A DNA stretch of 64,000 bases from Mytilus edulis. Taxonomy: Eukaryota. The position numbers and the translations under genes were made by a program. The DNA lies in contig NC_092350.1 of assembly GCF_963676685.1 (NCBI RefSeq), positions 59,768,001 to 59,832,000 on the forward strand, given 5' to 3'. Below, piece after piece: positions 369 through 43,912 of the stretch (positions within the stretch are counted from its first letter, which is position 1; each line of letters opens with the position of its first letter). The notes below the pieces were generated by a model. The model saw only the letters and a list, made by a program, of their open reading frames with translations, was not told where the DNA came from and did not search any database.

Positions 369-573
369 ACACACACACCTTAAAAAGATCTTCAAGACAT
401 ATTTCGCTTAAAACAAGACAAAAAAAAACGGAAATAGTAAAACATTTAATAAAAAGGGACAACAATTTAAACATTTAAAACGCCTACATTGAAACAAATT
501 ACATTTCGTTCCCATTATTAGACATTTTTTTTGTCTTGTTTTAAAGCGAAATATGTCTTGAAGATCTTTTTAA
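369..573. mobile_element. Small palindromic MITE-like element (~60-bp inverted arms); right arm split by the 574-4268 insertion and completed at 4275-4285
   Basis: 369-429 acacacacaccttaaaaagatcttcaagacatatttcgcttaaaacaagacaaaaaaaaa is the reverse complement of ~525-573 joined to ggtgtgtgtgt (4275-4285). Confidence 0.75.
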
Positions 574-610
574 TACGGAAGCCGATAAGGGCCATTCAAA
601 AAAAAAAATT

Positions 611-822
611 ATGTCGTTATAACGACATCGCTATGTCGTAATTTCGACATAATATGTCGTTATAACGACATCGCTATGTCGTAATTTCGACATAACATGT
701 CGTTATAACGACATCGCTATGTCATAATTTCGACATAATATGTCGTTATAACGACATCGCTTTGTCGTAATTTCGACATAACTTGTCGTAATAACGACAT
801 AGCTATGTCGTAATAACGACAT
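611..822. repeat. Subterminal tandem array of 18-bp palindromes (43-bp dimer unit x5), left TIR
   Basis: ATGTCGTTATAACGACAT-cgct-ATGTCGTAATTTCGACAT-aay starting at 611, 654, 697, 740, 783. Confidence 0.95.
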
Positions 823-3800
823 CAATATATATTAAAGAATATGTATTATGATTGCCAAGACACTAAATGACACAGAAATTAACAACTATAGGTCATATCA
901 TAATGCCCCCAATAACTAGAAAAGCCCCCGCATAATCAGCTATAAAAGAGGGACGAAAGATACCAGAGGGAGAGCCCCCGAAATGCTGTGTGGCAGACAG
1001 TGTTATTAATTAATTATTAGCTCCCTTGGTAAAACTCCAAATTTCATATTTAATGTATTTCATTGTTAAATAATTTACATGAAGCTGAATAAGTATATAT
1101 CTGTTAATTGCATAGCTTTTGCTATTTGAATTCATTGATTAAAGATATTTATTTATATTGTAAAGTTTAATATTTGTATCGTCGCAAAATCTTTGGTCAC
1201 CTTCTTTAGTTACCTTCTGTGAGAAACTTATATATTTTATAGATCCTAATCGAAAGTAATAAGAAACCGACCGGGGACTAAGCCGACTGACTTAAAGTCC
1301 TATCAAGGCAAGCAAAGCCTAACACCTTTCTTTAAAGAAGTGCACAACTCCGTGGTTTGTGGTAATGAGGGTGAATGAACGTATCGATTGCTGTGTATTT
1401 ACTGTCAAACGAAGGGCACGATGTTCCTAAAACACGACGTTACACATAAAAAGCGGCGTCGAAGAGGGTTTTTGACTAATTTTTGCGAGTTTTATTCGTT
1501 TTTTTATATGTTGGTTGATTTATTAATTATATTACAAAATTTTTAAAATTTCTGATTCTGGTTCTGTTCGTTTTGTGATGTCATTTTATCATAAATTACC
1601 TCAAGTTGTGGAAATCTATTTAATAATGTTTACCCTTTAAGTTATTTCAACTAAAAATGCATTACTGTCGCAAGTAATGTGGGAAAGAAAGATGGGACAG
1701 AAGTAGATATAGGCAGATGTGGTACAGTTTTCCGTAAAAAAGATATTTTTTCTTAGATGTACGAAACTTTTATCATATGATGTTTAACTTTTAAGGTGCA
1801 TATCATCTGTCATTGTAAAATTTCTAAATCTTAACTCAACCCCAATACAAATATATCTGACACTCTGCAAGTAAATCGAACATTTTTACCCTTGGTTAAA
1901 TTTGAATAGAATTGTATTTTCCCGTGTACATAAGTTGTCGAAATACACCCCTTCAATTACTTGAACCTTGGCTTGAGAATTATTTCCGCAAGTCATCTAT
2001 AGTGTTTAATTTCTGATATACATTTTGAAATATAGTAATCTACTCCTGGATCGTCCGCGAAAACGGCTTAAATAATCCCGGGTTTTTAAAATTCGATGAA
2101 ACGGTTTTCGTCGCTGTTTGGGATATGTCTTTCAATTACTAGTACCTCCATTTCATGCACAAGTTTATATTGACGAAAAGTTCCGGCTTCGCTAGTACAG
2201 GAATTAATTTCATCACGACAGTTATAACATGAATAGCAGGACAAATCGCGAAGTAAAACACTCCGTGAACTGGTATAAGTCTTTTAATATTGGTGATTGC
2301 ACCTTACTGAAATGACGACTTTAAATGATCTATGGAGTACTTCCACAATATAAATTTCAATTCGAATTTTACATTTAGAGGATTGTCTTGGTGTCTAAAA
2401 ATTGTCTTTGCAAAAGTTGGACGAAGTTCATGTAATGAGATGTTTTTCCCCATTTCACCATTCTTCTTTAAAATAAATCGTTAAAAGCTATAAACGATTA
2501 ATAAAAATTGCAAAATTTAACCTGTGTCGAACCTATGTCCCCGGGTGGAGTCTATAGCAACATGCGCTATTCTTTTTTTTCGGCAGCAATCATCAACCTG
2601 TTTTTCCAAATTTCACAACACGATTTGTTTTAATTATCATGAACATTTAATTGAAACTTAAGCACATGTAACGACGGAAATTAGCGTCTTTCGAACTTTC
2701 GACGTTTGGACAAATTGGCTACTGTTTTGTAATGTGTGGAAGCATTTTATTCCTTTAAGACCCAGACATGTAGTTAATAAGAAAAGAATCTTGTCATTTT
2801 TTACTCTTCGTGTATCTAACTTTTGTTTTGATTAATTATAAAAAATACGCGTTAACTGCTTTGAAAAATGAAATATCAACTTGGACAAAATGGCTACCGT
2901 TTGAAAAACGACTGTGTAGAGAAGATTTTATTGAATCAGCAATATTTGAACTCACGAACAATGAGGCAAATATTTGTACTTTTGTTAGATATTATTATTG
3001 TCTTACTATTTTTATTCATTTTCTGCTACTTACAAAATTCACTTTCAGTCGTTGAGATAACGAAAAACGTCGTTGGACATTTTTCTTATTCCCGCTTAAT
3101 ATAAAGCCACCGAGTCAAATAAAATTTGGCAAAAATAACGTCTTTAACGCCACAAAGAACCGACATCTGTCGTTGTTCCTGCCAAGTATCAAGAAGATCA
3201 GAGAATAAGAAATAGGATCACTATACATAAGATTTAAAACAGTTTTTCATAAATGTAACGTTGGACATCCGGTTTTTTTCACATAGCTTTGCTAATATAA
3301 TCATCAAATATACTAGATATTACTTAGTATATGATCAAGAGCTGTAAAAACATAATTTGAAACATATATTGAATTTGCTTTAATATTGGTTCGTGTTTTC
3401 TAACATTTTTATTTTGTTTTGCGGATGAAATTTCGAAGATTCTGTTTTAAATACTAGAGGTTGTAGAAACATCGTGTCCAACGTTTGTAAGTAGAAAGAG
3501 AGCAATCAATATATTTCAATTCACCCTTATTACACGAAGGCATATAGTTGGGCGCTGGTTTATAGGTCGGATGTATGTCAGTCCTCATATAATTCCTCAC
3601 ATATTAGTTCAAACAAGTAGAGAGTTTATCACACTAAGTCAGTATCTCCTTAATTAGGATCTATAAATTATATAAGTTTCTCACAGAAGGTAACCAAAGA
3701 AGGTGACCAAAGATTTTGCAACAATACAAATATTAAACTTTACAATATGAATAAATATCTTTAATCAATGAATTCAAATAGCAAAAGATATGCAAATAAC

Positions 3801-4083
3801 AAATATATACTTATTAAGCATCATGTAAATTAATCAACAATGAAATACTTTAAATATGAAATTTGGAGTTTTACCAAGGGAGCTAATAATTAATTAATGT
3901 TAACACTGTCTGCCACACAGCATTTCGGGGCCTCTCCCTCTGGTATCTTTCGTCCCTCTTTTATAGCTGACTATGCGGGGGCTTTTCTAATTATTGGGGG
4001 CATTATGATAACATATAGTTGTTAATTTCTGTGTCATTTAGTCTCTTGGCAATGATAATACATATTCTTTAATATATATAGTG

Positions 4084-4230
4084 ATGTCGTTATTACGACA
4101 TAGCTATGTCGTTAAAACGACATAGTGATGTCGTAATAACGACATGTTATGTCGAAATTACGACATAGCGATGTCGTTATAACGACATGTTATGTCGAAA
4201 TTACGACATGCTATGTCGTAATTACGACAT
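4084..4230. repeat. Subterminal array of seven 18-bp palindromes, right TIR
   Basis: ATGTCG-N6-CGACAT at 4084, 4106, 4128, 4149, 4171, 4192, 4213. Confidence 0.95.
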
Positions 4231-4626
4231 AATTTATTTTTTTTTAATGGCCCTTATCGGCTTCCGTATTTTAAGGTGTGTGTGTAAGAATATATAATAA
4301 TTATGTGAATAGTATTTCAACAAACATGAAACAGTTCCCCCGAGGTTCTGTATTATGTACATTCTATTATCATGTCTTTATAGGACAAATATGTCGACAC
4401 AAAAAAGGGGTCTCAGTCAGTGACAATCTTCTTTTGAAATACAAAAAGGAAAAAATAACAGATCGACACAGATCGACACAAATGATCGAATTTCAAATAT
4501 GCATCATGTACATGGAACAAATACTAGTAGTTACATTTATCAAGCAAAGCAATCAACGTGTGTGAAGCTAGAGTTGGTAAAGCATTAGCGATAGTTAACC
4601 CTCGCTTCCATCATTTACGACAGCAG

Positions 4627-10020: not shown

Positions 10021-10250
10021 TCAAGCATGGTTGTGCTTATCAAACCTTGACCAACGTTAAGTTTTTGATATTTGGTCTTTTTTCTAACACTATATGCAAT
10101 ATGTAATCTTTGTTTGGTGTATGGAAATATTTAATGATGTGCATGTCAGTCTGGCAGGTTTTATTTGGCCTTGACCTCATTTTCACTGTTCATTGCACAG
10201 TATTCAGTTTTTTAGTTTTGTTCTGATTTTCTTAAACTATAAGAAATAGG
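10021..10250 (+). mobile_element. 5' part of Helentron/DINE-like host element interrupted by the 11.6 kb insertion
   Basis: Units with ccttgacc...tttggtgtatggaa...tggcagg; the unit breaks at aagaaatagg and resumes as taggttaac at 21887. Confidence 0.7.
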
Positions 10251-10667
10251 AACTGAGAGCAGAATAAAAAAGGAAAAAACCAATTTTCCTCTTTTTTCAC
10301 TCTTAATTCTGACAAGTGCAATTAGAGGCCAAGTTCGGACCAGAACGTAATAAATTTATTCTATAACCCATGTATTAGAGAAAAAATCATGAAAAACAAA
10401 GACAATTCTGTTATATTAGTATTTATTTGTTACATTTCAAAATAAATTTATACTGAAATCTACACTTAGCTGTCCATTTTCAGTCAACTCTCTGTAAAGG
10501 ATTCAACATAGAATAAATTTATTCTAAATGCATGGTGCTTTCGGTATATGATCATTTATAAAATAAATTTATTTTATAGAGCCATAATATCTATTATTAG
10601 TTCGAGAAAATCATAGAATAAATTTATTATACATTCAATGTCATTTATGATTATAACAATATTTAAA

Positions 10668-11335
10668 ATAAATTTATTTTGAAAGTCCAATAATCTGTAT
10701 GGTGAGGCTGTGACACAGAATAAATTAATTCTATTTGAATGCGATTTCGGATTATAATAAAATATAAAATAAATTTATTTTGACGTAAAGTTATCTGTAT
10801 GGTGAGGCTATGACACAGAATAAATTTATTCTATTTGAATGCGATTTCGGATTATAATAAAATATAAAATAAATTTATTTTGAAGTAAAGTAATCTGTAT
10901 GGTGAGGCTGTGACACAGAATAAATTAATTCTAGTTTCAATGCGATTTCGGATTATAATAAAATGTAAAATAAATTTATTTTGAGTTAAGTTATCTGTAT
11001 GGTGAGGCTGTGACACAGAATAAATTAATTCTATTTGAATGCGATTTCGGATTATAATAAAATATAGAATAAATTTATTTTGACGTAAAGTTATCTGTAT
11101 GGTGAGGCTATGACACAGAATAAATTTATTCTATTTGAATGCGATTTCGGATTATAATAAAATATTAAATAAATTTATTTTGAAGTAAAGTAATCTGTAT
11201 GGTGAGGCTGTGACACAGAATAAATTAATTCTAGTTTCAATGCGATTTCGGATTATAATAAAATATAAAATAAATTTATTTTGAGTTAAGTTATCTGTAT
11301 GGTGAGGCTGAGACACAGAATAAATTTATTCTACA
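10668..11335. repeat. 100-bp minisatellite (7 units, 300-bp higher-order repeat) in the left TIR
   Basis: ggtgaggct at 10701, 10801 ... 11301; variants tgacgtaaag / tgaagtaaag / ttgagttaag recur every 300 bp; two AATAAATTTATT palindromes per unit. Confidence 0.95.
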
Positions 11336-13041
11336 TTCAATATGAATTTTGTTCTATATAAAAATAATCTTAAAAGTATTACATGATACAAAATTAAAAT
11401 AATTTAAAAGAAAATTCCAACGGTCTTATTTATTACAGACAAACTGAGAGACAACTTGAAGCTTCGTTATAATGCATCTGGTACTAATCGTTTAGTAATC
11501 TGATCTTTTAGTGACATGCAGATCTGTAGCTGGAATTATTCATCTTCAAACTCTTCTGACCTTTTCAAACAATCATCTTTGTAAATGTAATATTCCCAAA
11601 TACATGTTTCCATTATTCCGTTCAACCAAAGCTATCTGAAAGATCAAATAAAAAAATGCAGTTCATACAAAAAAAAAAGAAAAATGTGTCTATGGGCTAC
11701 AAATGATCCTGCTCGTAAATGTGCACGTGTCAACTTCCACATTCAGATACATGTACAGGATTCAAGTAGTGAAGACAGTTTTGTGATTTTAACATTCGGT
11801 TGAGGCAAACTTAAGTTAGAGAACAGAAACATCCAGCATTGTTTATGGTTATAAATGGGCATAACCCAAGATGGTAAAAGTCTTGCAACATCTTACATTA
11901 ACCTTGTCAAAAACGAATTGTAACTTGTAAAGTAAGCAAATGTTTCAGAGAGATGTACAAGGACTGAAGGAGCAGCCGGATCTGATCGCCGTATAGATAA
12001 GATGTGCAAATGATTGTACAACTGAACATCACATATCAGGCCCTCGCTCTAAAATTCATAATATATTCCTTTTCATAGAGTAACCGATACATTGCACGCA
12101 TTCTTAAAATAATGAATTTTAAATCACTAATAACAATTCCGACCGAACTACAATACATAATTTCATGTTTGCATCACAGCTGAAGATTGACCAATCAGAT
12201 AATTAGATTGTGTTTATCTATTTGAATATTGGAGTTGAAGCAGTGACAAATCCTCGGGTTTTACCATGTATAGGTACACAAACTTAAAACTCAATTTATT
12301 TTTTGTTGAATCATTAAAATTAAATTTGAGATTGTTTTTTTCAAATCTCCTTATCATATTAGACATGTGTTTTAAAAATCTCTGTGATATCTTTTACCGT
12401 TTAGTTTTAAATTGGAATGAAAAATTGTATTTTCCCATAGAGTTTGAGGTAAAATCCTGAGAATTTCACCTCCTAGAAATTTAAAGTGCCAGGATGTTCG
12501 AAAATATGTATTGTCAAAATACATGTATGAATTATATTTAAATTAACACTTTCAAAATCTTTAGCAATGAGATAAGAAAGAACACTTTTTATAAAACAAC
12601 AATTATGAATCTTAATTTCAGCATTCTAAGATACTTCTTTTTTTTTTTTTTTTTACCTCTAAAGATTTTCCTCAAAATGTATCCTTCACTAATGTTCTCT
12701 GTGGTTGTAGTAATTTCTGCCATTTTGTCTGCCTTCTAAACTTTTGTGTTTCTTTAAAAAAAAATCCTTTTGATAGAAGTGTCTGGTGACCTATAAAGAA
12801 CAGCGTATTATATTTTGACTGAAATGGTCATGTTATCCATGAAGATGCAGACTTTTTGTCAATTATTCTGTGTGCCAAACAGATTGCATAAGAGTGTGAG
12901 TACAGTTCTTTAGGTACTTATGAAAATGTTCAAAACTATATTTTTTTTTACATAAAATAATCTCTTGCTCGTTTATTCGTTTTTCGCAATGGTGTGTTAT
13001 TTTTTCATAGACTTATGAGTATAAATATGATCCTTTGGATT

Positions 13042-13159
13042 CAGTGGCGGATCCAGTTAGGGTTCTGTGCTTTGAACACCCTTTTTTTTTACGATCATTG
13101 GTTTTAAATTGGAACAAATGTTTAGAACCCTCTTTTAAAAATGACAGGTCCCGCCCCTG
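13042..13159 (+). mobile_element. CAGTGGCGGATCC..CCGCCCCTG MITE inserted in a Penelope-like tail fragment
   Basis: Imperfect TIRs; flanks cctttgga / ggtatctttc rejoin the tail motif. Confidence 0.55.
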
Positions 13160-16100
13160 GGTATCTTTCACTTTTTGCTAAAATAATAGGTACATTTTCC
13201 ATCCTTCTATGAAACAATTTCATAGCTAGTGTGTCCTAACAGCTGTTCTAAGACTAAGCGTAAAGAAAGTTAACTTTTTAATTTTTTAAATGTTTAAAAA
13301 TTACTTCAACTTTCACCAGTAGGAAATAATAATGAGATTACCAATTAGAAACATTATTAATATCATAATAATTAAACTTAAGATAATAAATAATATTTAT
13401 CTAATAATTTTACGTTCAAACTTATGTTCGCATGTTTTCAGATACCATCTCCAATATAAAAAAAATCACATCATGAAAAAATTAACTTGTTATGTGTTCC
13501 TCTTCTACTAGCTTCAAAATGTATCCAAAATCAAGAATGTGGAACATACTCTATCTGACATAATCATTTAGTAACTGATGCAATTAGTGTCTCGAGCTCT
13601 TTTATGCCCGTCTTGAACATAAAAAACTAAATATAAAATAAACAACTCTGCTAATGCTCAGGTTGGTTGTCATATTATGAAACATAGTTAATAATATAGA
13701 AACCAATGGGGATAACAAAGAACTTCTTTAGTCATACAAAACACAGTCAAAAACCTAAACATACTATCCACACTGATCTGTGTCCACACTTGTAGTATAT
13801 AAATTTATCTTTGTGATATAACAAATTGTCAGAGTAGTAAAGTCAAATTTAGTTATAGCATTAAGCTTTGCTTCATGATACACCTCTTTCTTTAATGATA
13901 TGATTATCGTTATCATAATCAGTTTTGGAGTTCCATAAATGTTTTATTCCAAATTGTACTTGTTTATTATGGAGTGATCGATATTATTCTTATGCAGTGC
14001 TATCGTAAAAAAAATATGCAAATTGATTCGCAGATGCGGATCGATCGAGGATTTGAAAAGGGACATAAGCAGAGACTTATTAAACGTTTAGTATGCATTA
14101 ATCATGTATGTCGGGTATCCACGAGGGGACCCCAGTATCCTTTACCCCCACCCCTCACCCCACCTCTAGTAAACTGAGCAAAACTAACCTCCAATTTCTT
14201 GAACTGTGATGAATGTTTCATAATCGAAACTGGAAAACTATCCCGTCTATGTTTAACTTGTCTTTCCTCCTTTTGATGTCCACTGTCTGTCATCTTCGTT
14301 GCACGTACATAGAGAGAAATACCAAGTGATCATATTATACAAAATTACAGATCAGTGTCATATAAACTGGTCCGCCGTTCCATCTATACAATGTAGCTTC
14401 GCACCGTCAGTGTAGCGATAAGTGAACACAACAGGGGTCCAGTTTAAGTGTCCTGCGTCTTGTCATTAATTATCTTGTGTTTCCATTTGAAGACTTCTCG
14501 GCATGTGGTAACACTATGGGCCTACAATCAACGTACGCGTGCATTACATAAAATTGATAAGGCTTTTAAGCCGCGTTTGTTGTAATTAGTAATAATTATT
14601 TTACAACTTCTGATAGATATGCGGCACTTGTTTGCTAACATACATTAAACAAATCGAAGGTTGTAAATTATTTGAATCTGTGTCATTTCATAGAGGTTTT
14701 TAATGTATGGTCATTTTATATCTTTCAAATAAAATAATATGCTAAACAAAAATGGACAACTACAAAATTATAATGGTCTGGATGGATGGTCCATCGATTT
14801 TGTATTCTTTTGATTTTTAAAACATTTTTTCTATTCTTTATAATTTTGCTCATTATTCTCTATTTGATCATCCTTTTATTTTCTATTCTTTATATCTTTT
14901 TTGTATATGCTATATGTTTTGTCCTTTATTCTGCGTTTCCCAGTCGCGTGATTTGATATTCTGTCAACTCCAACAAGACCCTCAAGTATTATTACCGATA
15001 AAATAGGCGTTTGAGAATGTGTATCATTTTGTCCTATTCTTTCTTTTATTTGTTTTAAAAGATTGGAAAGTAGGTATATATATATGTATGGGTGTTGCTG
15101 AATTTATGGACACTTAAGGGTGACTTGGGAATAGAATTGTCTTCATCCGCCAAAATAGAAAAAAATGTAAAACCCGTATAAAAAGTTTACCGAACTTCAT
15201 CCTGGTCTACCCTTAATTTATTACAGGTATTCCCCATGCATGGTAATACGTATGTATTGTTTTAAAATAGCTTTTCGTTCCGTGCATGCATGCATGAACT
15301 ATTTGACACTGCACGTTCTCAGTCTGCAACCACCAATCTGTCAATCAATCGATTTTATAGAAAAGATGTATCATATCTTACATCAAAACAATGTATAACG
15401 CCACCCGTTCATCTTTTTCTACAAAATGATATATGTGCGGATCACACTGCTGACATTACTAGACCACATATATGACACTTCGTCTATACCTGAGGATGTA
15501 GATGGGGGTTTACAGAATAGAGAATAATGAACAAAAAATAGAAATAATAGTATCGGAAGTATTGGAACAGAATATAAACAAACAGGAACATAAATTGTAC
15601 GGCTTCTAATTATAAATGATTACAGTTCAAACACAGCTGCATCATACATTAAAGTTAACGGTCAGTCAGACAGTCTGCTAAAGTTCACGAAAACAATAAA
15701 TTTACAAATACTTAACACTCTAGGCCAAGGCAAATTAAATACCGATCTTAGATAAGAAATAAATGTGCAAGTTTCACCCTATGACAGTTTTTAGATAAAA
15801 AAAAAAAAAAAAGACGATTTTTAAGTTTGCTGAACACATGTTTAGGCTAAAATTACGTGCATATTCAGGACTTGAACAAAATAACAATAAATCCAGTAGA
15901 TATAGGTTCGTAATGGAATGTCTTCATTGACTTTGTCTTGTGTAAAAAGCTCTTTTGAAATCCCCGCGGGTTTAAGCAACTTTGAAGTAAGTGCTTTGGT
16001 ACTTTCATAGTTTATATATTTTTTAAGTTAATTCGCCATTTATTATTTTATTATTTACATGTGAAACAATAACCCGGATAAATCATTCCAAAAACATGAT

Positions 16101-17581
16101 AGTGCTTACATTTTATAAGAGGATAACGAAATTAGAGAATTATATTTATTTAGATTGATATCCATGATGGAGCAAAGTTTCAACCACTTTTTTATGTCCC
16201 TTTTTACCATAAGATACTCGCGTCATTATTTATATAAAGAATGATGAGGATGACGATAATAACGATGTATGATGTCCAGTGGTAACTATTACATACATAC
16301 ACCCAGAATGACAACATGCTTTATGTTATTAACACGTTTTGTACTAGACAAACTGAGTCAGATGTTTTGACGCATTTTTCAGCAGATACAAATAACTTTG
16401 TAAGAAGACGTGCCAAGACGCATTATTCTAACTTCAATCGTACCAGTATTCAAATGCTTTCATTACTTATAAATGAATGTTTTCTTAACCTTCATTATTT
16501 GTTTGATAAGAGCAATGTTACAGTAATATCATGGAAAAACCATTTTTACGGAAAGCTGGAACACTGAGAAGCTAAGTCAACAGTGTAGTATTCCGGACGT
16601 CAACACCAAAAAACATCATGCAAATATATATATGGGGGATAAGTATACCATTATTTACACATCAGACTGTACTAATTATATTATAACTTTGAATACACCA
16701 AACTAAGTACTTCATATCTGAGTAACAGGCAATGTACGTCCTCAATTTTATAGAACTAATTCATAACTTTTTGTTTCATTTGTATTCATCTTTCAAATGT
16801 GTGTGTTCTGCAAGGTTCAGCAGTCCTTACCCTTTCATTTGATATATGTATCTATATTACTTACCAAAAATGATTCTGCACAGCATATAATATAGTTTGA
16901 TTTAATCACGTAAGAACTACTAAAATTTTTAAATACGTACTTCTTTCCTTTTTGATCGCACCCGAAATGGTTGGTGTAACATCTTACGAAGTCTATTCAT
17001 TGTTTTTGGCAAACTATTTCGCTCTGGCTGTTGCTAGTGGTCGTCTTACACGTGCAGTGCTGTGAGATACTTTTCGTTCCACGTTGAAGGTTTAATGTGA
17101 CTTACAGCGCTGTTCCTTTGCTTAATTTTTTAATGTGTTTTTTTTAATGTGGTTATATTCATTTTCTGTCACGGATTGATACCCAATATTCTTTTTTGTT
17201 TTTCTATGAAAAAAATGTTCCTTTACAAAACATATTGGTATATTCCAAACTTCGATTTTTTTTTAATAACGTAAATGATTTTTAATTTTAGCAAGGAGGT
17301 TATTGTGAGATATTCTAACCTAACTAAACGAAAAAGAGAATTGTAATATAAAATCTTACGATTCTAAAGTTTCTTCGAACAAGATTTGTTATCATATGAT
17401 ATGCTAATTACCCATATCATATTTTAATGACCACATACTGTGCCCATCGTGATCATATAAACCCTAATAAATTATAAACATTCGAATGTAAAATTTCGCA
17501 CGATAGATAATGACAAACAAACGACGGAAATTACATAATAAATCCACAGCGTGTATCTTAATATATTTGTCAGTACATGGA

Positions 17582-17790
17582 TAACCTAACCCGAATAATT
17601 CAGTCGTTATATTCCGCTGATCTACGAAGGCTACATTGTGTGGGAGAAAATCGGACACGGAAAGGGCTTGAATTATTCGAGTTATGGATAACCCGAATAA
17701 TCCAGTCGTTATTACTACGATCACTTCGATCACTCCATTAACCATTTCCTCGAGAAAGTAGTGGATAGGGGCGCTGAATTATTCGAGTTA
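17582..17790. mobile_element. Two nested ~100-bp MITEs with 17-bp TIRs and 9-bp TSDs (AcademH-like)
   Basis: TIR TAACYCGAATAATYCAR. Element A 17587-17684 is flanked by TGGATAACC (17578-17586, 17685-17693). Element B ends at 17790 and is flanked by GTACATGGA (17573-17581, 17791-17799). Confidence 0.85.
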
Positions 17791-19130
17791 GTACATGGAG
17801 GAAAGAATATTCAAAGATTAGGAGCGACGATTCAATATCCATTTGTGTATTGTATTTGTCGTGGTTGAAACGGCACCAGGAACATATCAGGATAGACAAC
17901 AAAAGTCTGTAAGTATCTATTTTATGTATTTATAAATATTAACATAGATCCTATAAGCCTGTCATGCCTTCTGTTGACAAATTTTCTTAACTATGCACTT
18001 TTTTAGTAGACCACCGATGTCCTTTTCGAACTAAACGAAACTCTTTGAAAAGACACACCTCAGTCGAATCTTTCTTCTCAAATGAATGCCTGAATGGTCA
18101 TCAAATTTATACTTGTTATGGGCAAAAAATGTATTAATTCTGACTGCAAGGAATTTTAAATGGTAAATAATATACATTTTATCTCGAGGGAAATGAATAC
18201 ACACTTAGACAACAGTGAATTTTTCATAAATAATATAAAATGGTAAAAGTGTAGCATACACATGATATATATCATGTGTATATCATGTGTATTAACTATT
18301 AAACTCTGGAAGAAATATAGTCAAGCATGAATACAAACTAATGGGTCCTATTTGGAAAACAATAATTTTTCTCAGAAAGGTATCTCTTTCTTCAGAGGTT
18401 TATATGAAACTTTGATGTCTGTTGTGCAGTGATGGTTTTTTTCTTTCTCCGACGCCTGTATGCGAGACATAGTAGGTATTGCAACCCGTCTGACAGTTCT
18501 CAATTGACTGCGACCTCATTTTTATGGTTCATTGGACAATTTTTAGTTGTGTGGTTGGGTCAATTTTTCGGGCATTATAAGCAATAGGTCAATAATATGT
18601 AGTGTATGGAACAACCATGACAACTGTGGTGTCATGTCTATCTGTCGGGGTTAACATGACCTTAACCTAATTGTTTGATGATAAGATGTTGTATTAAGAT
18701 CTGATTCTCAGGTACTATTAGCAACACCAGAACACACCCACAAAATCGCGGTCATATACAGCTTGTGAACTGGGATGATTTTTTGTATTAAAAAGATATT
18801 ATGTATGGAGAATTTCATAAAAAGGTATCAAAAGCCCTCTCCCTTTTTTCAAAGTCTGATATTTGTTTCCTTTCTGTTAAATTCAATAGTTTTTGTGTCT
18901 CTGGTCTCAGACCACAATTATTCTTCTCCTTTGCTACAATGCATCTTTTGGTAAACTTTGCACCGCTCCAAACATGAAATAAATGTAACTGCTTATATTT
19001 AGACCATATTAGTCTAATAAAATATGCTTCTATGACAATCCATCAGTGCTTTTTCTTTTGAGGGCATTATTAACATGCCAATGGTAGGATATGAATCTTG
19101 TATATATGACTGAACGACTAAGGCTAATTT

Positions 19131-19311
19131 GAGGGGTGGTCGGAGGGGTCCTGATCCCGAAATCCCGGGCTTAAAAACATGAAATCCCGAGATGCAGAAT
19201 TTAAAGAAATTCATATCCCGAAATCGAAAAATATATTCCCGGATCCCGCAAGGGTCAATCCCCAAATCCCGAGGTCCCGAAAAAGTCCTGATTCCCTCTT
19301 ATCCCTACCCT
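19131..19311 (+). mobile_element. Short non-autonomous element with repeated ATCCCG(A) motifs
   Basis: gaggggtgg...atcccgaaatcccg...ccctaccct; inverted relative at 22166-22307. Confidence 0.6.
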
Positions 19312-19354
19312 ACTTTCTTTTTTGCCAACTCACTACTTTCAATTTCAACAATAA

Positions 19355-19490
19355 ATTTTATGCCCCATTTTTTGGCATTGTGTTTTCCAGTCTGCGAATC
19401 TGTGCGTTCGTTCGTTTGTTCGTCCTTCCGTCTGTCCCGCTGCAGGTTAAGGTTTTTGATAAGTAAGAAAAAGGCGAGACATTTGCACTC
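19355..19490 (+). mobile_element. Internally deleted Helentron/DINE-like mini-element
   Basis: tttttatgcccc start, cgttcgttcg..ccgtctgtcc microsatellite, end aaggcgagacatttgcactc shared with 22335-22362. Confidence 0.6.
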
Positions 19491-21886
19491 ATATTTTGGT
19501 AATAAAATGTGTAAAGTGTTGACAAAAGTACATGTACCTAAATTTCAATATATTTTTGTATCAGAGTGCCGAAGGCGCATCTTTAACATTTTGAGAGGAA
19601 AATGGATATTTTGTTGAAGGGGGGAATGTGTTGGGTACATTACTTATACTTTTACCTGAGGAAGCTGCTGTTCTTTTTGAAACATGTCTTACTTGTTTTC
19701 TGGTATGTTGAATGCGGTAGGTAAAAGTATTGTCAACACCAGTCCTGTGTTTTGTTTAAAACTTAATGAAACCTGTTTTTAATTGTAATTTGTGTCTTCA
19801 GTTCGCTGTCTCCTAGGCATGAAACATTCATCTGTTTTAAGACTCTATGATTGATTGATTGATTGATCATGACTGGCTGAATGTGCAATGGCAAATATTA
19901 CATGCATATTCAGGAAGTTGGGAACGATTCATGCCAATCCTGATAAAAAATAAAGAAATATGCCTGAAGAAAAACAATAACAGAGTAAGTGTTCCTGCAT
20001 TTTAACTTCAAATATTTCTTGTAGAGTGAGAAAAATGTTATGAAACACCAGCAAAAAAGATTAGATTGTTATTCAGTCCTGACTTATACAGTTTTTCTGA
20101 AGATGGAGATTAGGTATGCAATAATGAGTTTTTAATTTGATAGAGTGTTGACTTTTAAATTGTAAAAGTTTAATGAGTTACTGTACGTTAATCCCTTTAT
20201 TGTATAAAAATTCAACAATTGCTGTTCAAGTGCATAGCATAGCCATCGTTATCTTGCTGTATCCAGAGGCAATATATATATATAAGAAGATGTGGTATGG
20301 GTGCCAATGAGACAACTCTCCATCCAAGTCACAATTTATAAAAGTAAATCATCATAGGTCAAAGTACGGACTTCAACACGGAGCAAGACTGTTATTAATG
20401 ACAATTAAGAGAGTGAATAATATTATATAAACAAAATAGACATCATAATTAAAAGAAAGACAGACAGTTTCTTCATCAAATATAATAAATTTTGGTATGA
20501 TAACTAAAAATGTTTGAAATTGTTTTGAATTTGTCGTTACTTCTTTCAGATCAGGCCTATCCAGAAGCAAGAAAAAGAACAATTCATAGCACGTACATCT
20601 ACAGAGAGAGACATGTTTTAAAAAACAAATTTATTTTCAATTTTAGAAAAATCTGTTGAACTTTTACTATTTCTTATCTGTTTATTTACATTTATATGTT
20701 GATATTTTGTTTTTTTAAATTGCTGCACAGTAATTCTATTCAGTCCCATATAACAAAATCAGCTAAAGAAATTGATATTTTCATATTTCAAGGGAGTGTA
20801 CTTTTGCATTGTTGATAGCAGATATAAGTATTGTCTTAAGTTGGGTTTAAAAACAGTCAGATCGCAACTTCAAATAATATACATTTTTATGAATGTTATA
20901 TGTCATTAAATAGACATGAAAGATGGAAAATTTTATAGGAACACATTTTTTATGACCTAAATGTATTGTCAAGGTAAATTTATTATTTGAACATATTATC
21001 AAAAACACTGCTGGTTTAAAATAAAATTATTCTATGTAGCCTAATGTAATCATACAGATCAGTATATTTTTTCCTAAACAAATTTTACATATTTTTATAA
21101 CCAGAATAAATTTATTCTGTGTCTCAACCTTAACATAATTACTGTACTATCAAAATACATTTATTTTATATATCATAATACTTTTAATCCACATTGAATG
21201 TAGAATAAATTTATTCTGTGTCGCCTCCTTAATATGATAACTGTACTTTCAGAATAAATTTATTTTATATATTATTATACAAGACAAAAATCACATTGAA
21301 CATAGAATAAATTTATTCTGTGTCTCAACCTCACCATACAGATTACATTACTTTCAAAATAAATTCATTTTATATATTATTATAATCATAAATGACATTA
21401 AATGTGAAATAAATTTATTCTGTATCACAGCCTCGCCATACAGATTACTGGACTTTCAAAATAAATTTATTTTAAATATTGTTATAATCATAAATTACAT
21501 TAAATGTAGAATAAATTTATTCTATGATTTTCTCTAACTGATAATAATATCAAGGCTCTTTATAATAAATTTATTTTATAAATGATTAAATACAGAAAGC
21601 ACCATGCATTTAGAATAAATTTATTCTAAGTTGCATCATTTACGGAGAGTTAAATGAAAATGGACAGTAAAGTGTAGAATTCAGTATAAATTTATTTTGA
21701 AATGTATCAAATAAATACTAATATAACAGAATTGTCTTTGTTTTTCATGATTTTTACTCAAATACATTGGTTATAGAATAAATTTATTACGTTCTGGTCC
21801 TATTTTTGCCTCTAATTGCACTTGTCAGAAATTAGAGTGAAAAAAGAGGAAAATTGGTTTTTTCCTTTTTTATTCTGCTCTCTGTT

Positions 21887-22362
21887 TAGGTTAACTTTAC
21901 TTGCTGTATGGAATTGTAAGTTGTACACTTCTGCCTGCCATGGTTCAGATCCTTGACCTTAGTTTCGTGGTTCATGTGTTTAGTTTTCTCGGTTAAGTCT
22001 GTTTCTTAGAAACTATTAGCATGGGTCATTTATACTTAGTGATTTATTGTAAGGTGTACATGTATTTTTTGTTTTTATTTATATGACCTTGTCCTAATTT
22101 TCTTTGACCATGTTAAGTTTATGTGATAGTTGTAGTAAAGCTTTATATTTAGGACTATCAACATAGAGGGTGGGCAGGACCTTTTTCAGGACGTCAGGAT
22201 CGGTTGGTTTTAAGCTTGTGATTTCGGGATTAACCCTTTCGGGACCCGGGATTTTTTTTTTCATTCAGGACCTCGGGATTTCATGTTTTTAAGTCCAGGA
22301 TTTTGGTTCAACATAATATCAATGATTAGTAAAGAAGGCGAGACATTTCAGCGTGTGCACTT
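21887..22362 (+). mobile_element. 3' part of Helentron/DINE-like host element
   Basis: Continues the units of 10021-10250 and ends agtaaagaaggcgagacatttcagcgtgtgcac. Confidence 0.7.
22166..22307 (-). mobile_element. CGGGAT-motif element with 8-bp TSD, nested in the Helentron-like host
   Basis: TCAACATA at 22158-22165 and 22308-22315. Confidence 0.7.
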
Positions 22363-25104: not shown

Positions 25105-25452
25105 AAACAAATTGAAAAATCCTCAACACAAAAAAAAACATTTTCATTTTTGAGAAAAAAAATTAAAGATGAAAATTCAACATTTTTCATTTTTCAATAT
25201 TTCAAAGCAAATTGAAAAATGCTCCACATTGGAACATTTTTCAATTTTTAAAGGCAAATTGAAAAATGCTCCACGTTGGAGCATTTTTCATTTTTTTGAT
25301 TTTTGAAGGCAAATTGAAAAATGCTCCACGTTGGAGCATTTTTCATTTTTCAATTTTTAAAGGCAAATTGAAAAATGCTCCACGTTTTAGCATTTTCCAT
25401 TTTTCAATATTTTATGGCAAATTGAAAAATGCTTAAGGTTAGCAATTTCAAT
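25105..25452. repeat. Tandem array (~50-59 bp units) of a 31-bp hairpin palindrome
   Basis: aaggcaaatTGAAAAATGCTCCA-cgt-TGGAGCATTTTTCA, five good copies at ~25205-25450 plus degenerate copies upstream. Confidence 0.9.
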
Positions 25453-26101
25453 ATTTTGTCCTTTAGAAGGAGATAGAAATTTGTTTCTTTTCTAAAACAA
25501 TCAAATTCAAATGTTTTAATTAATTCAAACTGTTGATAAGATGAAATCTTTTTAAGACAAACTTATCATTACTTTTAATATGATCCTCGTGAAATTAAAT
25601 AATGTAATGTCATGAAAATTACAAATTTCAATTCTCATAACGAAAATGATTTTTCAGAAGTGACTTCAACAGATGTTTGTTACATTTATCAAACCAATTA
25701 ATTTTAAAATTTGTAGGGTATTTTCAAAATCTATTTGTTCAGCTTAAAATGAAAAATGTTTGGCGTAAATATACACGGTCTTAGCTTGATATACTCTGTT
25801 TAGCTTATTAAAAAAAAATCAACAAATAATACTGTAAAAACCAAATTGCAAATACATTAAAAAAATGACAACTAAAATAAAAGACACAAACATAAAACCT
25901 CAAAACGATGTCACTGACGACGCAGGCAGATATATATGATAATTTTATGTTAACATGTTAACATGTAATTTGCAATTTTAATATTTGTTTATTTTTGATG
26001 TAATATTCAAAATTTGCAAAGAAGAGACCCGGGATTAATTGATACAATATAGTCACTGTAAAATGTATTAAAAAAGCTGATACTTATACATTTTTTCCCA
26101 G

Positions 26102-31229: not shown

Positions 31230-31921
31230 AGCTAGTCAAAAAGACCACTATAGATAGATTTAAGTCTGTCTCATATCTTGACTTACATCTAGGAAAGCAC
31301 AAATAGGGTCGGTTGAAAACAAAACTGTATACTAGAAGAGATGATTTCACTGCCCATTGGTGATCTTTCAATTTCTATGAAGCGACATTCCAGCAGCGGT
31401 TGCATACTGATTATGCATCTCACAATGGATACGATATTATTCCCAGTCCTGCATTTTCTATCATATAAGGGATTTCCTTGATATTAGGTTGCTGCTTACA
31501 AGGAAGTTATTAAACTAAGAGTTCCAAACGATGAAGTTGAAATCCTCCCTTCGTAATTTGTATTGACACCATCACGAATAGGTTGACCGTTACAGAATAT
31601 TCATTTCACAGATGATATCGCATATGTTCCTTATGTCGAAACATCCTGTTCACTTTTTAAGAAATAGACTACTTACAAGGTTTGAAATAACACTAGCATC
31701 ATGACGGGTGCAAAACATAGTGCAGGATCTGCATACTTTTCAAGAGCATATGAAATCACCCCAGTTTTGTAGGGGGTCTTAATGCTTAGTCTACAGGTTG
31801 TGTTATGTTATGTCTTGTTTACTATTATTTGTCTATTGTTTTTTCTTCTTTTAGAGTGGGGTTGTCAGTTAAGTTTAGATATATGATCTTGAGTGTCTCT
31901 CTGGTATATTTCACTCGTCTT
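31230..31921 (+). mobile_element. Decayed Penelope-like retroelement 3' part (RT C-terminus/thumb plus tail)
   Basis: KSVSYLDLHLGKHK*GRLKTKLYTRRDDF ... SDIPAAVAY*LCISQWIRY ... DFLDIRLLLTRKLLN*EFQTMKLKSSLRNLY*HHHE*VDRY; multiple stops and frameshifts; no C-terminal GIY-YIG follows. Confidence 0.8.
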
Positions 31922-34900
31922 GTAGAGGTGTACAGAATTTTACACCGGTGTTGAATTTTGGCTACGCCTCATTATGTGTGTATTTTTAATAGGTCTGCAC
32001 ATTTTATACACTATTTCTCTAGATTACACCAAAAACCAAATATTTCTATCAACACACATAGAAAACGCACATGAAGCGAAACACCCATTTACCCGATTTA
32101 CACACTATGTGTACGTACACGGTACGTCTTCGTCTGAGCTCACAATGCATACCGATGGTTTATCTCTCTGAAAACTCACTGTATGAAACATATCGGTACA
32201 CTTAATATTCGATTTATTTCACTTTGACTGGTTCGCTCATAATAAACTAGTCCATCTATAGATAGGTGTTTTAGGATAAACTCATCAAAGTAGTGTCCAA
32301 TCATTGTTTTGTAAACTCCTTTGATGACACTGATAGGTGATTAGAAATTAGTAATAATTATAATGGCAATTATCCTTATCACATACATCTTCAATAGACT
32401 GTCCTTATGTAAATTAAAACGTAAGCTCCGCCCGATCAGTTGAAATAACATTGATTATACCTAAAATTGTTTTTGAATGAAAATGAAAAATGAGTTTTTA
32501 TGAAATATTCGTAATAATACAGCACTGTAAATTGAAAAATAGTTTGATTGAATATATTCATTGTTTTTTTTCTTTTTCTCTCAATAACATGCACTGAAAT
32601 ATTAAAAATGATAAGACAAACATGCCAAAGGAGTTTTGTTTTGTTTTTTCACAAACAAAAAACCCAACAAGGACACACTAAAAAAAATAAAGGCTGCTAT
32701 CGAAAAAATCAAGGAGATATACATGATATATAATTGAGTACACTCTTCAAAATTTTCTTTCCCATGCGAAAACCAACAATTGTGTAAGGTGTCTGTATAT
32801 CCAAGTAAGCACAAATTTCATTTACAAATATGCGTTGTACATTAAAGTTTTTAATGTGCCAGCTATCGACAGATACACATATATGTTCAATCTTAATTAC
32901 AACGAACAGTACATAATTGTTATAAGTAATGCTTTATTAGTGATCGACGGTATATGGTCCCTGAATTCTTGTGGTGTGCACTGCAAATTTCGGAATACAA
33001 TACAACTATTGTATGAGTACTATTGCTGGTTGAATTTCTCATTGCATGTTGTATATATGAAGTTTTTGAGATTTTGGTTTTACTATTTGATCAGAACTTA
33101 GGTTTGGCACTATAAAACAAGGTTCAATCCACCATTTTCTACATAAGAAAACTGCAGTACCAAGTCAGCAATATGACAGTGTTGATCCGTTTGCTTGAGA
33201 TGTTTGAGCTTTTGATTTTGCTACTCGATTCGGGACTTTATATTTTGAATATTCCTTGAAGTTCAGTATGTTTGTGATTTTACTTTTTGCAATTGTAAGT
33301 TTATAAACATGGTTTTAATCTCTAGCTTGGAATCAAGCATTGTAAGGGTATATTTAACATGTTTAGACCAAAATATTTTAGTATTTGTAATATCTCTTTA
33401 CTCAAATAACTTATTTACCTTGTCATAATTGTATGTTGCAAGCATCATGACTAAGGACAAACTACTCTGGATATCAGATGGTCGAAATAAAGGTAGTCTG
33501 AAAGTCTTGTCAGTTCAATTTTTTGAATTGAAATATCTAAGTGGCTTTTACATATTGTATTAACATTGCATCTTTTAGTCATCTTGAACACTTACATCAG
33601 ATTAGATAGAATTATAAAATTTATCTCGGGTTGTGGATTTTTTTTCTTTCGTATTGTATTGCTCTTCATAAATTCAGGACGCGACTTTCGTAGACTACTT
33701 GTTAATGTATGGACTTCATTTATCGTTCGTACTGTGGTCCCTGGTGCTTATGTATAGTTTTCGTAGTAACACTAAATATATTTGTTTTAATCAACTTAAT
33801 AACTTGAATGTTGATTAGTACATCGTAATAATAAAATGAATGATACAATGATTTAACAAACAAACATTAACTGACATGTTCAGCATCGGCAAACACAATA
33901 TACGGTTAAATTACAAGAGAATGTTTTAAATGTTTACAATTTGTTTGTAATAAAAAGGCTTTCAAACGTTTTAAACAGAAAGACAATACAACCTAAAACT
34001 ACATGACGTTTTAGCAGTCGCCCTATTTATTCGTTTTATATAAAATGGTAAACGGTAAAAATATATATAATGCATTAATTACTATTTCAACAATTGAAGT
34101 TTTATATTTTAAGTTAATCGATAACAAAAGTTTTAAATCTTGTTATATATTTCGGTTCTTAAATTCACATATGGCATTTTATAAGTATGACAACATCTGC
34201 CGCAATACAGTAACTAATTCCTCACCAACACACCATCGACAATTTTGCTCTGATGTATGTAAAGATGTTGGTGTTTGTTTATAATATACTTCAAAACATA
34301 CTGCATGCACAGTTTTGTATATAGTAGATTAAGAAACCGCAAACAAGAAGACGCATATGTTTTCCTAAAGGAGCTAAGGCTGTGAGTAATGTGTGATGAC
34401 GTTTATACAGATGTGATTGACACAAACTGTATAGGTATTTAAATGTCCATGCTTCATAAATCTTTCAAAACTCAAATAATGAAAGAAACATGTTCTACGT
34501 CCATGACAAACGTGTCGCTGTACCAGCAGATCAACCTCAAACAACATAGAGTTTTTTGTTTGAATCAGATGACATTATCTTTTAAATACATGAATTAGCT
34601 ATTGTAAATATATATGAAAACTAAATAACTAAAAAAACTAAAATAGTAATACAATAATTGAAGCATCTTCCTTCGCTGTATACAAGAAAAAATCACAAAA
34701 ACAAGGCAAAATCATACGCTGAAACGCACCAAATGAATAACAACCGCCATATTCCTGACTTGGTACAGTCATATTACTATGTATAAAATGGTAGACTGAA
34801 ACTGGTTTTATAGCTATCTAGTCCTCTCATTTGTATGACAGTAGCATCAAATTCCATAATATTGATAGCGATGATTGATATCATCCCTAAAATATAGTGT

Positions 34901-37900
34901 TTTTAGAAACAACGCTATATCGCAAATACTAGAAAAATCCTCGCTATATAACATCATTTTTACCCATTTGAAGTATCTTTGGAGAGAATGGTTGTTTTTA
35001 ATGACAGATATAAAAAAACGATTCTGATTATTTATTCAGACTTTTGATTATAGGGCAATGTCTTGATATATATTCAATTCAAAACAACTTAACAACAAGT
35101 CTATACTCTATTTGATTTTCATCTACTCTGTAAATAATCATACGTGTTGATGTTGAAGAGTTTCTTTTTGTATCTGTTCATTTCGACCAATTACATTAAT
35201 TACAAACTAAATACTATTCCAAGTGATTAGCACACACAAAACTGTACTTCCTATTGTCTATTTAACAGCATTTGTGGGATAGATATCTTTAAACATATCA
35301 GTTTTTCATTAAATTGTTTATAATCATTTGGAGCTACATTTCGATCTTATCTTCATGGAAACTTAAACTTAGGTGGGTGTAATATGTTTCATGCGTAATG
35401 CATAACTTCTTGCGCGTAGATTTGCTTTCATCAATTTGTCAAGGAGTAATAGATGCAACATTTGAAATAGAACTCAATCGCAAAATTTAAGAAAATGTAA
35501 ATACAAGAGATGTTTATTAACACACTTTGGTTGGATGTGCATGGCTCTGTTTTTACGACAAGAAATGCCGCGTAGCAAGTTTTCACATGGATACATCAAC
35601 ATGTCGACTTGATTTTACCGATCAATGTTGTGTTGCTATCCTTATAACATTTATAACAGTTATTATCGGGATAGTACTCCTTTGACTATTACACACAAAA
35701 AGAATACAAAGACAGTCTTAAGGAGGTATTGTAAGAGGAGAATGAATTTTGTCGTGTGTCTTGGAAGCCAACTTGTGGAGAAAATAAATTTAAAACGGTC
35801 AAATTCGATAAAATTTTGTGATTTTAAAGATCATTAACCCATTTCTCTGACGTCAGTGTATTGTTCTAACCCCCTTAAATACAATTAGACGTCGTTTCAG
35901 TTTATTTTTCAGATCAAATAACTTGCGTAAGCTGTTTTAGCTATGAAGAATCGCTTTATAAAGTTATCGATGACCCTAAAAACTGGACAAATGCAGTGGT
36001 ATGTGTAAACTTACATTTAATTTAATACTAATCGTTGAGCTAATTCCACTACAAAACAAATCAAAATGCTGTCTGACAAACAGTTGGACCAGTGAGTACG
36101 GGATTCTGAAAGTCGTTTGAAACGAGTTAGTTGTGACAATAATGTTAATACAATTCCGGAACCCATAGATGCATATATTACAAACTTAGTCTTTGTGCAC
36201 AATTTTGTAATTGTAACGTATCTTTTTTGTTTAATCGTCAACAAAAGTGTTTCACTCGGTCTGTGTTGTTATGAAATATGATCGTGTTTTGAAACCGAAA
36301 TTAAGCGATTGTCACCTTTCAATCAACTAAAAAAGCCTGGATAATTAGGTAATCACGTGAACAATTAGATATAGTTTATCTTGATGCAGTGCGATGTTTA
36401 CGTTTGGTTTTCCACTTCGCACTTGCGTATCGCAAATATTGGGCTTGTTCACGAGAAATATGTCGTGCTTGGGTAACGGCAAACAGACAACATGGAAACA
36501 AAAGTACATGTACATATGTGTTATAACAGAAACTAGCCATTTAGTTGAAAAAATCATATGCTTATTTTGTTTTTAATATGAAGTCATATATGACTGTTAT
36601 CTTGTTTATTGAATATGCATGATATATCAATAGTACATGAAGTTAAGTCTTTAAAGTATCCTTCATGTTAATATCATATGAATTGTCAGAATTGTCTTCA
36701 ATACAGGTTAAGTAATTTCTGTAATATACATTTAGTACTGTTCAGATAGTACAGTCAGTATAAAGTAGAAGTTCCGATTTTTAAGATTACAACGTATGAT
36801 CTTCACAGGAAGAATATAAATGTCTTGGTGGATTTCTAACAGAAGTAGAGAGCATTGAGTTTATTAAGAACATAGCTAAAGGCAGATTTTTATTACCTGG
36901 CGGCGGTGAGCGTTTTATATTTTAGATATTTTTATCAGTTCATATTGCACAGTGACAATATAGGAATTTCTTAGTTGATTAGCTATGCGACCGTGTTGCA
37001 CTCTAAGAAAGATACATATGCAGACAGAAAATGATTTAAATCATTCAATTATACAACGTTCATCTGCAAGCCATGAGATAAGTTCAACCCACCATTTGTC
37101 ATTTACCGAGTCAGAAATAGGGCAGTTGTTATCAAATTATTTTGTTTTATAAATGTTGCCATTTGCTTATGCTGAACTTCAGTGTTTCTGTTTTATCCGT
37201 ATATTTTTCCCTGTTATAGTTGATGTTTTTCCTCAGATAAAGTTTGTAGTGATATATTACTGTTACCTTTCCTTATACATTGTCTTTTTAATATAGTGTT
37301 TGAAATGTTAATATACACTTGCTATGTAATTATGAAGAAACATTACACATTGAAGATAGACAGTGATATTTAAGAAATACATCGGCTTTCGTTAACACAA
37401 TCATATCAATTGACTTTAAATACATTGCTCAAATTAAGTCTCGAATTTTGTTTAGCATTATATCAACATGCTGATTATTTATGGATCGATTACCAATGCA
37501 AAAACGCCATATCTTTTATTTGCGAATTCTACAATAATTGAAGCGTGTGAAGCAGTATTGGCATTATGTCATAACGCCTGTCTGCAGATGTTCTCGTGCA
37601 TTAATTTTGATGAATAAAAAAAAGTAGTGCTATGTTAATACTGCTGATTTAAACTGTTGGTGCATCAAAGTACATCCGATGTTTAAAACTATTTCTGCAT
37701 TTGTAACTATTGGCAAATGACATTTAAAACCACAATTTTGCTACAGCTGTTATCCTAAAGCTAACAGGATAACAGTTTGATTTTCTTCCTTGCCATGTAT
37801 GTTCTTTTTAAATTTTCATAAGTATTGTAAAACGGATTGACGCCTGGAACCAATAGGAGTATTCGCGGTTAAAACCTGTATTTAGGTAAAGTTAAGTATT

Positions 37901-43400: not shown

Positions 43401-43912
43401 ATATGATATGAACATCAATCTTTGAACAAGCTTATGCTAACAAATAATCTACATTACCACACAGATCGTACTTAGATAGTGACAGTCTGTCAAAACAATG
43501 AATTCTGATAGCGTCTGATATTGACGACAGGGGCATTGTGAAGTCTGGGGAGAGAAGATAATCAATAGTTGTGATAAAAAATGATGTCAACACGCCCAAG
43601 GATACTCGTCCAATACTGAATAATTGTTTTTTCCTTATAACATTAATTTTTAATAACAGTTATTATCGGGATATTACTCCTTTGATTATTACACACAAAA
43701 AGAATACAAAGACAGTCTTAAGGAGGTTTTGTAAGAGGAGAATAAATGTTGTCGTGTGTCTTGGAAGCCAACTTGTAGAGAAAATCAATTTAAAACGATC
43801 AAATACGATAAAATGTTGTGATTTTAAACATCATTAACCCATTTCTCTGACGTCAGTGTATTGTTCTAACCCCCTTAAATACAATTGGACGTCGTTTCAG
43901 TTTATTTTTCAG

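Follow-up and report, generated by a model that had tools for sequence, protein, structure and literature searches.

A transposase-less, AAC-ended giant element family of the mussel Mytilus edulis and its candidate Sola1-type partner

The giant Sola1 element of the brown alga Ectocarpus, Sola1-1_Ec32, is according to its published description 21,549 bp long, with AACCG-CGGTT ends, a 282-bp imperfect terminal inverted repeat (TIR) and a 4-bp target-site duplication (TSD); its best match is Sola1-1_PPa, and it carries a ParB-like and methyltransferase gene on the opposite strand (PMC12477816). The same account reports for the Ectocarpus genome fixed nested insertions and giant families that lack a transposase and are mobilised in trans (PMC12477816). 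Published, curated Sola1 elements of bivalves have an average length of 5.4 kb (PMC10294476). The subject here is a foldback element at positions 10251..21886 of a 64-kb stretch of Mytilus edulis DNA (contig NC_092350.1; the whole stretch is referred to as the window). Together with its paired copies elsewhere in the genome, 24 in all, this window element forms a family that is read, at a probability of roughly 0.85, as a family with no detected transposase that arose from a giant AAC-ended Sola1 element by internal deletion and is moved in trans by a 34.9-kb element of the same genome, termed T2, or by a close sister of T2.

Long inverted arms made of short repeated motifs, often in non-autonomous elements, are familiar from the foldbacks FB and Galileo of Drosophila, TU of sea urchins and the Mutator-like element (MULE) Rehavkus, which belong to the P or MULE superfamilies and have TSDs of 7-9 bp. 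The window element shares the modular arms and differs in its 4-bp TSD and its Sola1-type partner. It starts with AACTGAGAGC at 10251 and ends with GCTCTCTGTT at 21886 (reverse complement AACAGAGAGC). A first-pass annotation, made from the letters of the window, had described AAC..GTT termini, an exact TAGG duplication and inverted arms of about 1 kb that are ladders of a palindrome every 50 bp or so, and all of these are borne out by the features at the two ends:

10247..10250, + strand: left TSD, TAGG
10251..10297, + strand: left terminal box, AACTGAGAGCA with an A-rich/T-rich hairpin box
10349..11330, strandless: ladder of the left arm, 19 AATAAATTTATT palindromes at a spacing of about 50 nt, with a 100-nt higher-order unit
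21020..21788, strandless: right-arm palindrome ladder, 13 motifs within the span
21840..21886, - strand: right terminal box, with GTT at its end
21887..21890, + strand: right TSD, TAGG

The inverted arms (left about 1.1 kb, right about 0.8-0.9 kb) are 92% identical over the outermost 340 nt and 87% over 782 nt overall. Allowing one mismatch, the left arm contains 19 copies of AATAAATTTATT and the right arm 14, mostly at a spacing of 49-55 nt, against a single occurrence in the remaining 61.8 kb of the window; the palindromes are likely to be transposase binding sites. Base 4 distinguishes the two ends from each other (T versus A), a variant present at 5 of 48 family termini, all within the window element's own subfamily. 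A host repeat had also been said to rejoin across the site. When the element and one TAGG were excised in silico, 16 of 62 alignments to copies of that repeat, some of them redundant, ran without a gap across the junction.

In the 1.37-Gb genome, where the window lies on C7, the terminal 15-mer AACWGAGAGCAGAAT has 56 exact matches (2 for a control), as 24 inward-facing pairs and 8 orphans, and the family counts that follow cover all 24 fetched pairs (48 termini). No small miniature inverted-repeat transposable element with the exact family end is present among the 56 matches. Paired copies range from 7,487 to 16,867 bp with collinear interiors, so that the 11.6 kb does behave as the single mobile unit proposed earlier: the interior is common to the 24 pairs, each with its own 4-bp duplication. 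That duplication is exact in 22 pairs and off by one base in the remaining two. All 48 termini read AAC, and the CAC or GAG consensus that other copies might have revealed is not seen. TAGG is not fixed; TSD sequence varies within a weakly palindromic target, TAY-NWWN-RTA, in which TAY is found at 16 of 48 half-sites against a background of 5%. By composition, the TSDs are NWWN in 16 of 24 copies, TTAA in two and AWWT in one. Three subfamilies are distinguished: that of the window element (four copies 98-99% identical and one at 94%), a main subfamily of 17 copies at about 95% identity, and two older copies at 86-91%. Many nested insertions are common to several copies, and the family therefore went on moving after it had gained them.

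The family appears to encode no transposase. Its shared core contains no open reading frame (ORF) of 130 aa or more, and the long ORFs of individual copies lie inside private insertions and by eye resemble proteins of long interspersed nuclear elements (LINEs) or Harbinger. Neither tblastn with 10 DUF7869 proteins nor a DUF7869 profile scan of 9,460 six-frame fragments gave a match in the 24 copies. A source of transposase was sought in the genome with PF25273 (DUF7869), which was presumed to cover Sola1; 150 of 328 candidates were scored. The search returned many multi-exon genes, several of them in AAC-ended elements or relatives of these.

One such element, T2, is complete. It occupies C3:16297562-16332417 (34,856 bp, AAC ends, TSD ATTT/ATTT), and its arms are ladders of the same AATAAATTTATT motif, 13 per arm. 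Over the first 47 terminal bases, T2 and the window element are identical at 37 positions, compared with a mean of 14.8 and a maximum of 28 in 100,000 shuffles, and with 17-25 identities between the window element and four other AAC families. Further T2 ends with other flanks lie on C2264, and a partial copy on C933 (both unplaced contigs), at 96-99% identity. Because identities within the window element's subfamily (98-99%) and among T2 copies (96-99%) are so high, both spread recently. Also noted, at C12:64.34 Mb, was a related end accompanied by a portion of the accessory region described below.

The core of the predicted T2 transposase comprises seven GT-AG exons that encode 584 aa without a stop, a model that covers the exons downstream of the 5' transposase exons. 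It includes the motifs IIDGMDQ, QADNCFRENKN and GHTHEDID and is 37-45% identical to the three longest database homologues. Ten homologues of the T2 type are known here, bivalve-labelled except for one without a label, and the database proteins closest to the elements studied here carry Mytilus labels. Two oyster homologues (P0008 and P0009) have the DUF7869 transposase fused to an N-terminal OTU protease domain, and P0010 is modelled as a fusion with a DNA glycosylase.

T2 also has, on the strand opposite the transposase, an accessory gene of several exons, represented in the database by protein P0011 (605 aa). In 23 of 24 window-family copies the final exon of that gene persists together with its splice acceptor, in the same position and on the same strand as in T2. 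Remnant E values range from 9e-9 at best to 0.06 across copies, and the remnant spans 17 codons in the window copy and 26 to at least 43 aligned codons in the other subfamilies. With no transposase in its copies and with a T2 of matching ends, ladder and exon, the idea that this is a non-autonomous family mobilised in trans gains support.

Decayed element sequence and nested repeats make up most of the interior, in which the following features were recognised:

11588..11638, - strand: last-exon remnant and splice acceptor of T2's opposite-strand accessory gene, 17 codons, E 0.011
12154..12510, strandless: 357-bp insertion private to the window copy, a nested small element with TACATA..TATGTA ends
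17582..17790, strandless: nested short inverted-repeat element between two GTACATGGA copies, partly duplicated in the window copy
17791..17908, + strand: spliced exon A, with an approximate 5' limit and its GT donor at 17909
20025..20113, + strand: spliced exon B
20550..21020, + strand: spliced exon C, 3' limit approximate

A spliced transcript, with the nested inverted-repeat element at its 5' end, is indicated by the GT-AG joints 17908>20025 and 20113>20550 in contigs of two runs (X15, X16), both presumed to be RNA; a third presumed RNA run (X17) gave a 735-nt contig, also part of the evidence for exon C, that departs from the first exon. The exon A donor is kept in 21 of 24 copies and both exon B splice sites in 23. 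The transcript is probably non-coding, because only short frames are open in the spliced form and 13 nt found in the other subfamilies are missing from that of the window element. Neither joint was listed for the raw reads of two further RNA runs (6% of each), which showed little depth outside nested repeats, and a sequencing-run search for window-element sequence returned no RNA run among the matches listed. Exon C weakly resembles the last exon behind the T2 transposase gene (E 0.001 for the window copy, with no composition adjustment); in a main-subfamily copy the match is weaker (E 0.06). A hidden multi-exon transposase gene in the interior was considered and is not supported: in four contig runs compared with the cleanest main-subfamily copy, no upstream GT-AG joint was present among 15 of 123 joints listed. 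Nor was a separate host parent locus found for the spliced-exon region, whose 26 long matches are all family copies. The term "cargo-carrying", used at first pass, thus applies only loosely, to an exon remnant, a short spliced transcript and nested repeats; as a claim of a captured host gene it falls away, none having been found.

The first-pass annotation had further concluded that the element fits no superfamily and might be unclassified. With a Sola1-type partner of matching ends and ladder in the same genome, that conclusion is abandoned; the window element very probably belongs to the Sola1 lineage, and it is filed with the giant AAC-ended Sola1 type rather than with classical short Sola1. 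AAC at both ends with a TAGG target had been thought to match none of the familiar 4-bp-TSD superfamilies cleanly. Among the curated bivalve elements (PMC10294476 supplementary file 24, covered for the first ~400 bases of each record), all eight Sola1 records start differently from AAC and from any single consensus, and the only record that starts with AAC is a TcMar. In seven of the eight, as in the window element, positions 10-11 nonetheless read CA and positions 16-19 AAAA, a match recognised post hoc. AAC ends together with a 4-bp TSD are already on record for a giant Sola1, since Sola1-1_Ec32 has both. Judged from the published description of the algal element rather than from its sequence, the mussel elements resemble it in AAC..GTT ends, in a 4-bp TSD without strict AWWT, in an autonomous form above 20 kb, and in an accessory gene opposite the transposase strand whose ParB-like character is only a lead. 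They differ in their animal host, in the length of their ladder arms (about 1 kb, as opposed to a 282-bp imperfect TIR), in the 34.9-kb size of T2, in an accessory protein with no methyltransferase domain detected, and in that the window element is non-autonomous. A Repbase rule of thumb for filing non-autonomous elements, which is a convention of annotation and does not define a family, asks for equal TSD length and at most one mismatch in terminal bases 1-11 (PMC4455052). T2 and the window element agree in TSD length and at 9 of these 11 bases, so that it is the 47-nt end, together with the ladder and the exon they have in common, that carries the Sola1 filing.

Classical Sola1 is represented in this genome by Sola1_M.edulis_37, which was located by its terminus. 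Of its eight copies, all have the TSD ATAT and five the flanks TAT..ATA; a PF25273 transposase occurs in one, the sole copy with a coding match. Classical bivalve Sola1 resembles the window family in its 4-bp TSD and TAY..RTA-like flanks, and T2 in its PF25273 transposase; unlike them, Sola1_M.edulis_37 is about 5-5.5 kb long, with GAC ends, strict ATAT and few or no introns, and its transposase is about 20% identical to that of T2 (19-23% when the GHTHEDID-type transposases are compared with this genome's classical Sola1). T2, the database homologues and Sola1_M.edulis_37 all fall under PF25273, and colinear motifs are common to them. An intronless relative, L215, matches the T2 core at E 3e-12 and Sola1_M.edulis_37 at E 1e-72. 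For a second curated family, Sola2_M.edulis_39, a recognisable transposase was present in none of 16 loci examined. Structural models add a suggestive element. For the predicted structure of homologue P0003 (pLDDT 77.8), the top 16 VIA rows are all integrases or DDE transposases (Z 6.4-7.1, rmsd 3.4-6.0, 132-166 residues aligned). The full-length model of the P0002 transposase is poor (pLDDT 52) and Foldseek found nothing with it, and within this poor model residues 362-453 match winged-helix domains with Z up to 6.8.

Several other families, AAC-ended or related to such families, accompany T2. Family G has about 19 copies, mostly of 20-29 kb, the smallest being 9 kb and the largest 40 kb, and is young, with AAC ends, a 4-bp TSD in 12 of 13 and a GGGGAAATTTCCCC ladder; an example lies at C11:73874221-73896935. 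Its transposase is represented by only the last two catalytic exons, with a frameshift in 5 of 5 copies, and an unshifted exon is found at C8:82.54 Mb. G was rejected as partner of the window family on account of its different ladder, its 25/47 terminal identity, the two remaining exons and the shared frameshift. T5 (15.4 kb at C13:16.76-16.78 Mb) has AAC ends, TSD TATT and its own ladder; H (10.5 kb at C1:50.48 Mb) has AAC ends resembling those of G, TSD CAGG and no transposase match; T3 (C14:56.2 and C8:30.8 Mb) has an AAC right end and its own ladder; T4 lies at C1:64.98 Mb and T1 at C6:76.0 Mb. The ladders of T5, T3, T4, T1 and H all differ from one another (TTACCATTCTGGAATGGTAA, GAGTATCGATACTC, TCCTATAGGA and TGGTCTTTAGACCA-like), and most of the five carry DUF7869 genes. 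T1, T3, T4 and T5 were set aside as partners because their ladders differ from the AATAAATTTATT ladder. One G copy is nested inside a window-family copy at C1578. Three orphan copies (C10:42.08, C2:71.47 and C1578) break off within about 20 bases of one interior position, adjoining a perfect TAT-CTTT-GTA target site, the site at which G inserted in C1578. The orphan left family end at C2:71.47-71.48 Mb adjoins a long poly-Ala/Gly-rich ORF (an 896-aa frame) that is shell-matrix-protein-like.

A route by which such a family could arise and move can be proposed. A relative of T2 would have been the ancestor, and loss of its coding core would have given the window-element family. The T2-type DDD/E transposase may bind the palindrome ladders as dimers, probably through a winged-helix-like domain, and many ladder sites acting cooperatively could help to pair ends that are 11-35 kb apart. 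The transposase would then cut at the AAC tips, in cut-and-paste fashion and in trans, and would insert the element, with cuts staggered by 4 nt, at a 10-bp site that is weakly palindromic. By extension, the transposase acting on a given AAC family might be the one whose own element has the matching ladder, the ladders serving as a specificity code. That T2 itself is the current mobiliser is somewhat favoured.

Several observations weigh against this reading. At the DNA level, the interiors of T2 and the window family share only common nested repeats, and the protein identity of the accessory-exon remnant to T2 is only 44-65%; the ancestor of the family was accordingly a T2 relative rather than T2 itself. 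The two differences in the first 11 terminal bases have been mentioned, and a closer partner may lie among the PF25273 candidates beyond those scored. The direct match of T2 to Sola1_M.edulis_37 is weak (E 6e-4; profile E 3e-4). The AWWT target preference, described as a hallmark of Sola1 (PMC3845634), is seen in only 1 of 24 TSDs. The P0003 fold scores fall below the level that the tool treats as distinctive, and Foldseek gave no row at E <= 0.001, the best being IstA at E 3.5e-3. Mobilisation in trans by T2 or a close sister is likely, as a prediction from sequence, and the T2 transposase is itself predicted from an open core.

The alternative that survives best keeps the Sola1 lineage and holds that the mobiliser is a sister autonomous family with closer ends, absent from the assembly because it lies on the other haplotype or in other individuals or was recently lost. 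This is possible, if distinctly less probable than mobilisation by T2. It would account for the differences between window and T2 ends (2/11 and 10/47 bases) and for the divergence of the accessory exon, and near-identical sequence in runs under three organism labels and the partial scoring of candidates are in keeping with it. Against this, the spaced ladder pattern has 192 matches, of which the 100 listed are all inside window-family copies; the 8 orphan ends do not continue into any transposase gene belonging to them, and that at C1578 is a nested G element; and T2 is young with an identical ladder motif.

A new, unclassified superfamily, or a Sola subgroup distinct enough from Sola1 to deserve its own name, is unlikely. 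The low identity of GHTHEDID-type transposases to classical Sola1 and a characteristic syndrome of ends, arms and size speak for it, but PF25273 and colinear motifs are held in common with Sola1, and an algal AAC-ended giant with Sola1-1_PPa as its best match has already been filed, in its published description, as Sola1 (PMC12477816).

A Kolobok-type element with relaxed target choice is very improbable. Its RR..YY ends would accommodate AA..TT, the 4-bp TSD is alike, and the two off-by-one TSDs recall the 3-5 bp range given for KolobokP (PMC9587614). TTAA specificity is nevertheless lacking, with TTAA in only 2 of 24 copies; the long terminal direct repeats that KolobokP requires by the same account (PMC9587614) are absent, the window-element arms being inverted; and the element that matches in ends and ladder and has the exon in common codes for a DUF7869 protein rather than for a Kolobok transposase. 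The chance that the arms are two independent foldback insertions bracketing host DNA is negligible, for apart from the decayed, intron-like appearance of the interior nothing favours it, whereas at 24 loci paired ends bracket one and the same interior, every locus has a separate outer TSD, no inward-facing terminus occurs at the inner ends of the arms, and the one-mismatch look-alike at 11442 is oriented as a left end. Other superfamilies with short TSDs are recognised by their own signatures: CAC ends for EnSpm/Chapaev, TGT for Ginger, TTAA for Sola3 and piggyBac. With AAC at every terminus and TTAA in two copies of 24, these four were rejected.

Elsewhere in the window, a second foldback of 3.7 kb (573-4269) has ends (A)TACGGAAGCCGATAAGGGCC, an ambiguous TSD (TTTA or TTTTAA) and arms formed by a 21/43-bp palindromic array (ATGTCGTTATAACGACAT). 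An array of 47-55 bp units with a GGCAAATTGAAAAATGCTCCAC core at 25181-25461 is possibly another element's arm. Positions 31563-39381 and 40499-47941 form an 8-9 kb direct duplication (blocks 83-96% identical, no long ORF), and a 228-aa frame at 63317-64000 (+) resembles, by eye, a LINE reverse transcriptase fragment.

A more speculative proposal, and an improbable one at present, is that ancient cross-kingdom giant AAC-ended Sola1 elements are active in mussels as parallel ladder-barcoded families of 9-40 kb, and that in the T2 lineage a ParB-like protein loads on the palindromes, as on bacterial parS sites, and helps to pair ends tens of kb apart. The ParB-like nature of the T2 accessory protein is a lead only: in the Atlas its core lies, at 0.94, near DUF3723 and near a cluster in which 35% of the members carry ParB_N, and no ParB or methyltransferase domain was matched in Pfam. 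T5 and G, with ladders and no detectable homologue of the accessory gene, count against the proposal. If true, it would provide a eukaryotic transposon that uses a ParB-type clamp for giant loads.

The findings extend to an animal the giant Sola1 design of a brown alga, and they link DUF7869 of Pfam with the transposases of Sola1. In the literature searched, neither an animal Sola1 of giant size with ladder arms nor any paper on DUF7869 came to light; Repbase and Dfam were outside that scope and may hold a record. For large "unknown" bivalve repeats, the combination of AAC ends, a 4-bp TSD, TAY-N4-RTA, palindrome ladders and a DUF7869 partner offers a diagnostic. T2, young, 35 kb long and with an open core, is together with its natural passengers of 11-17 kb a candidate large-cargo transposase. 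Presence/absence variation has reportedly been described in mussels, and T2 and its passengers are a testable source of it. Finally, several families with different ladders in the same genome make a test system for the divergence of transposase-end specificity.

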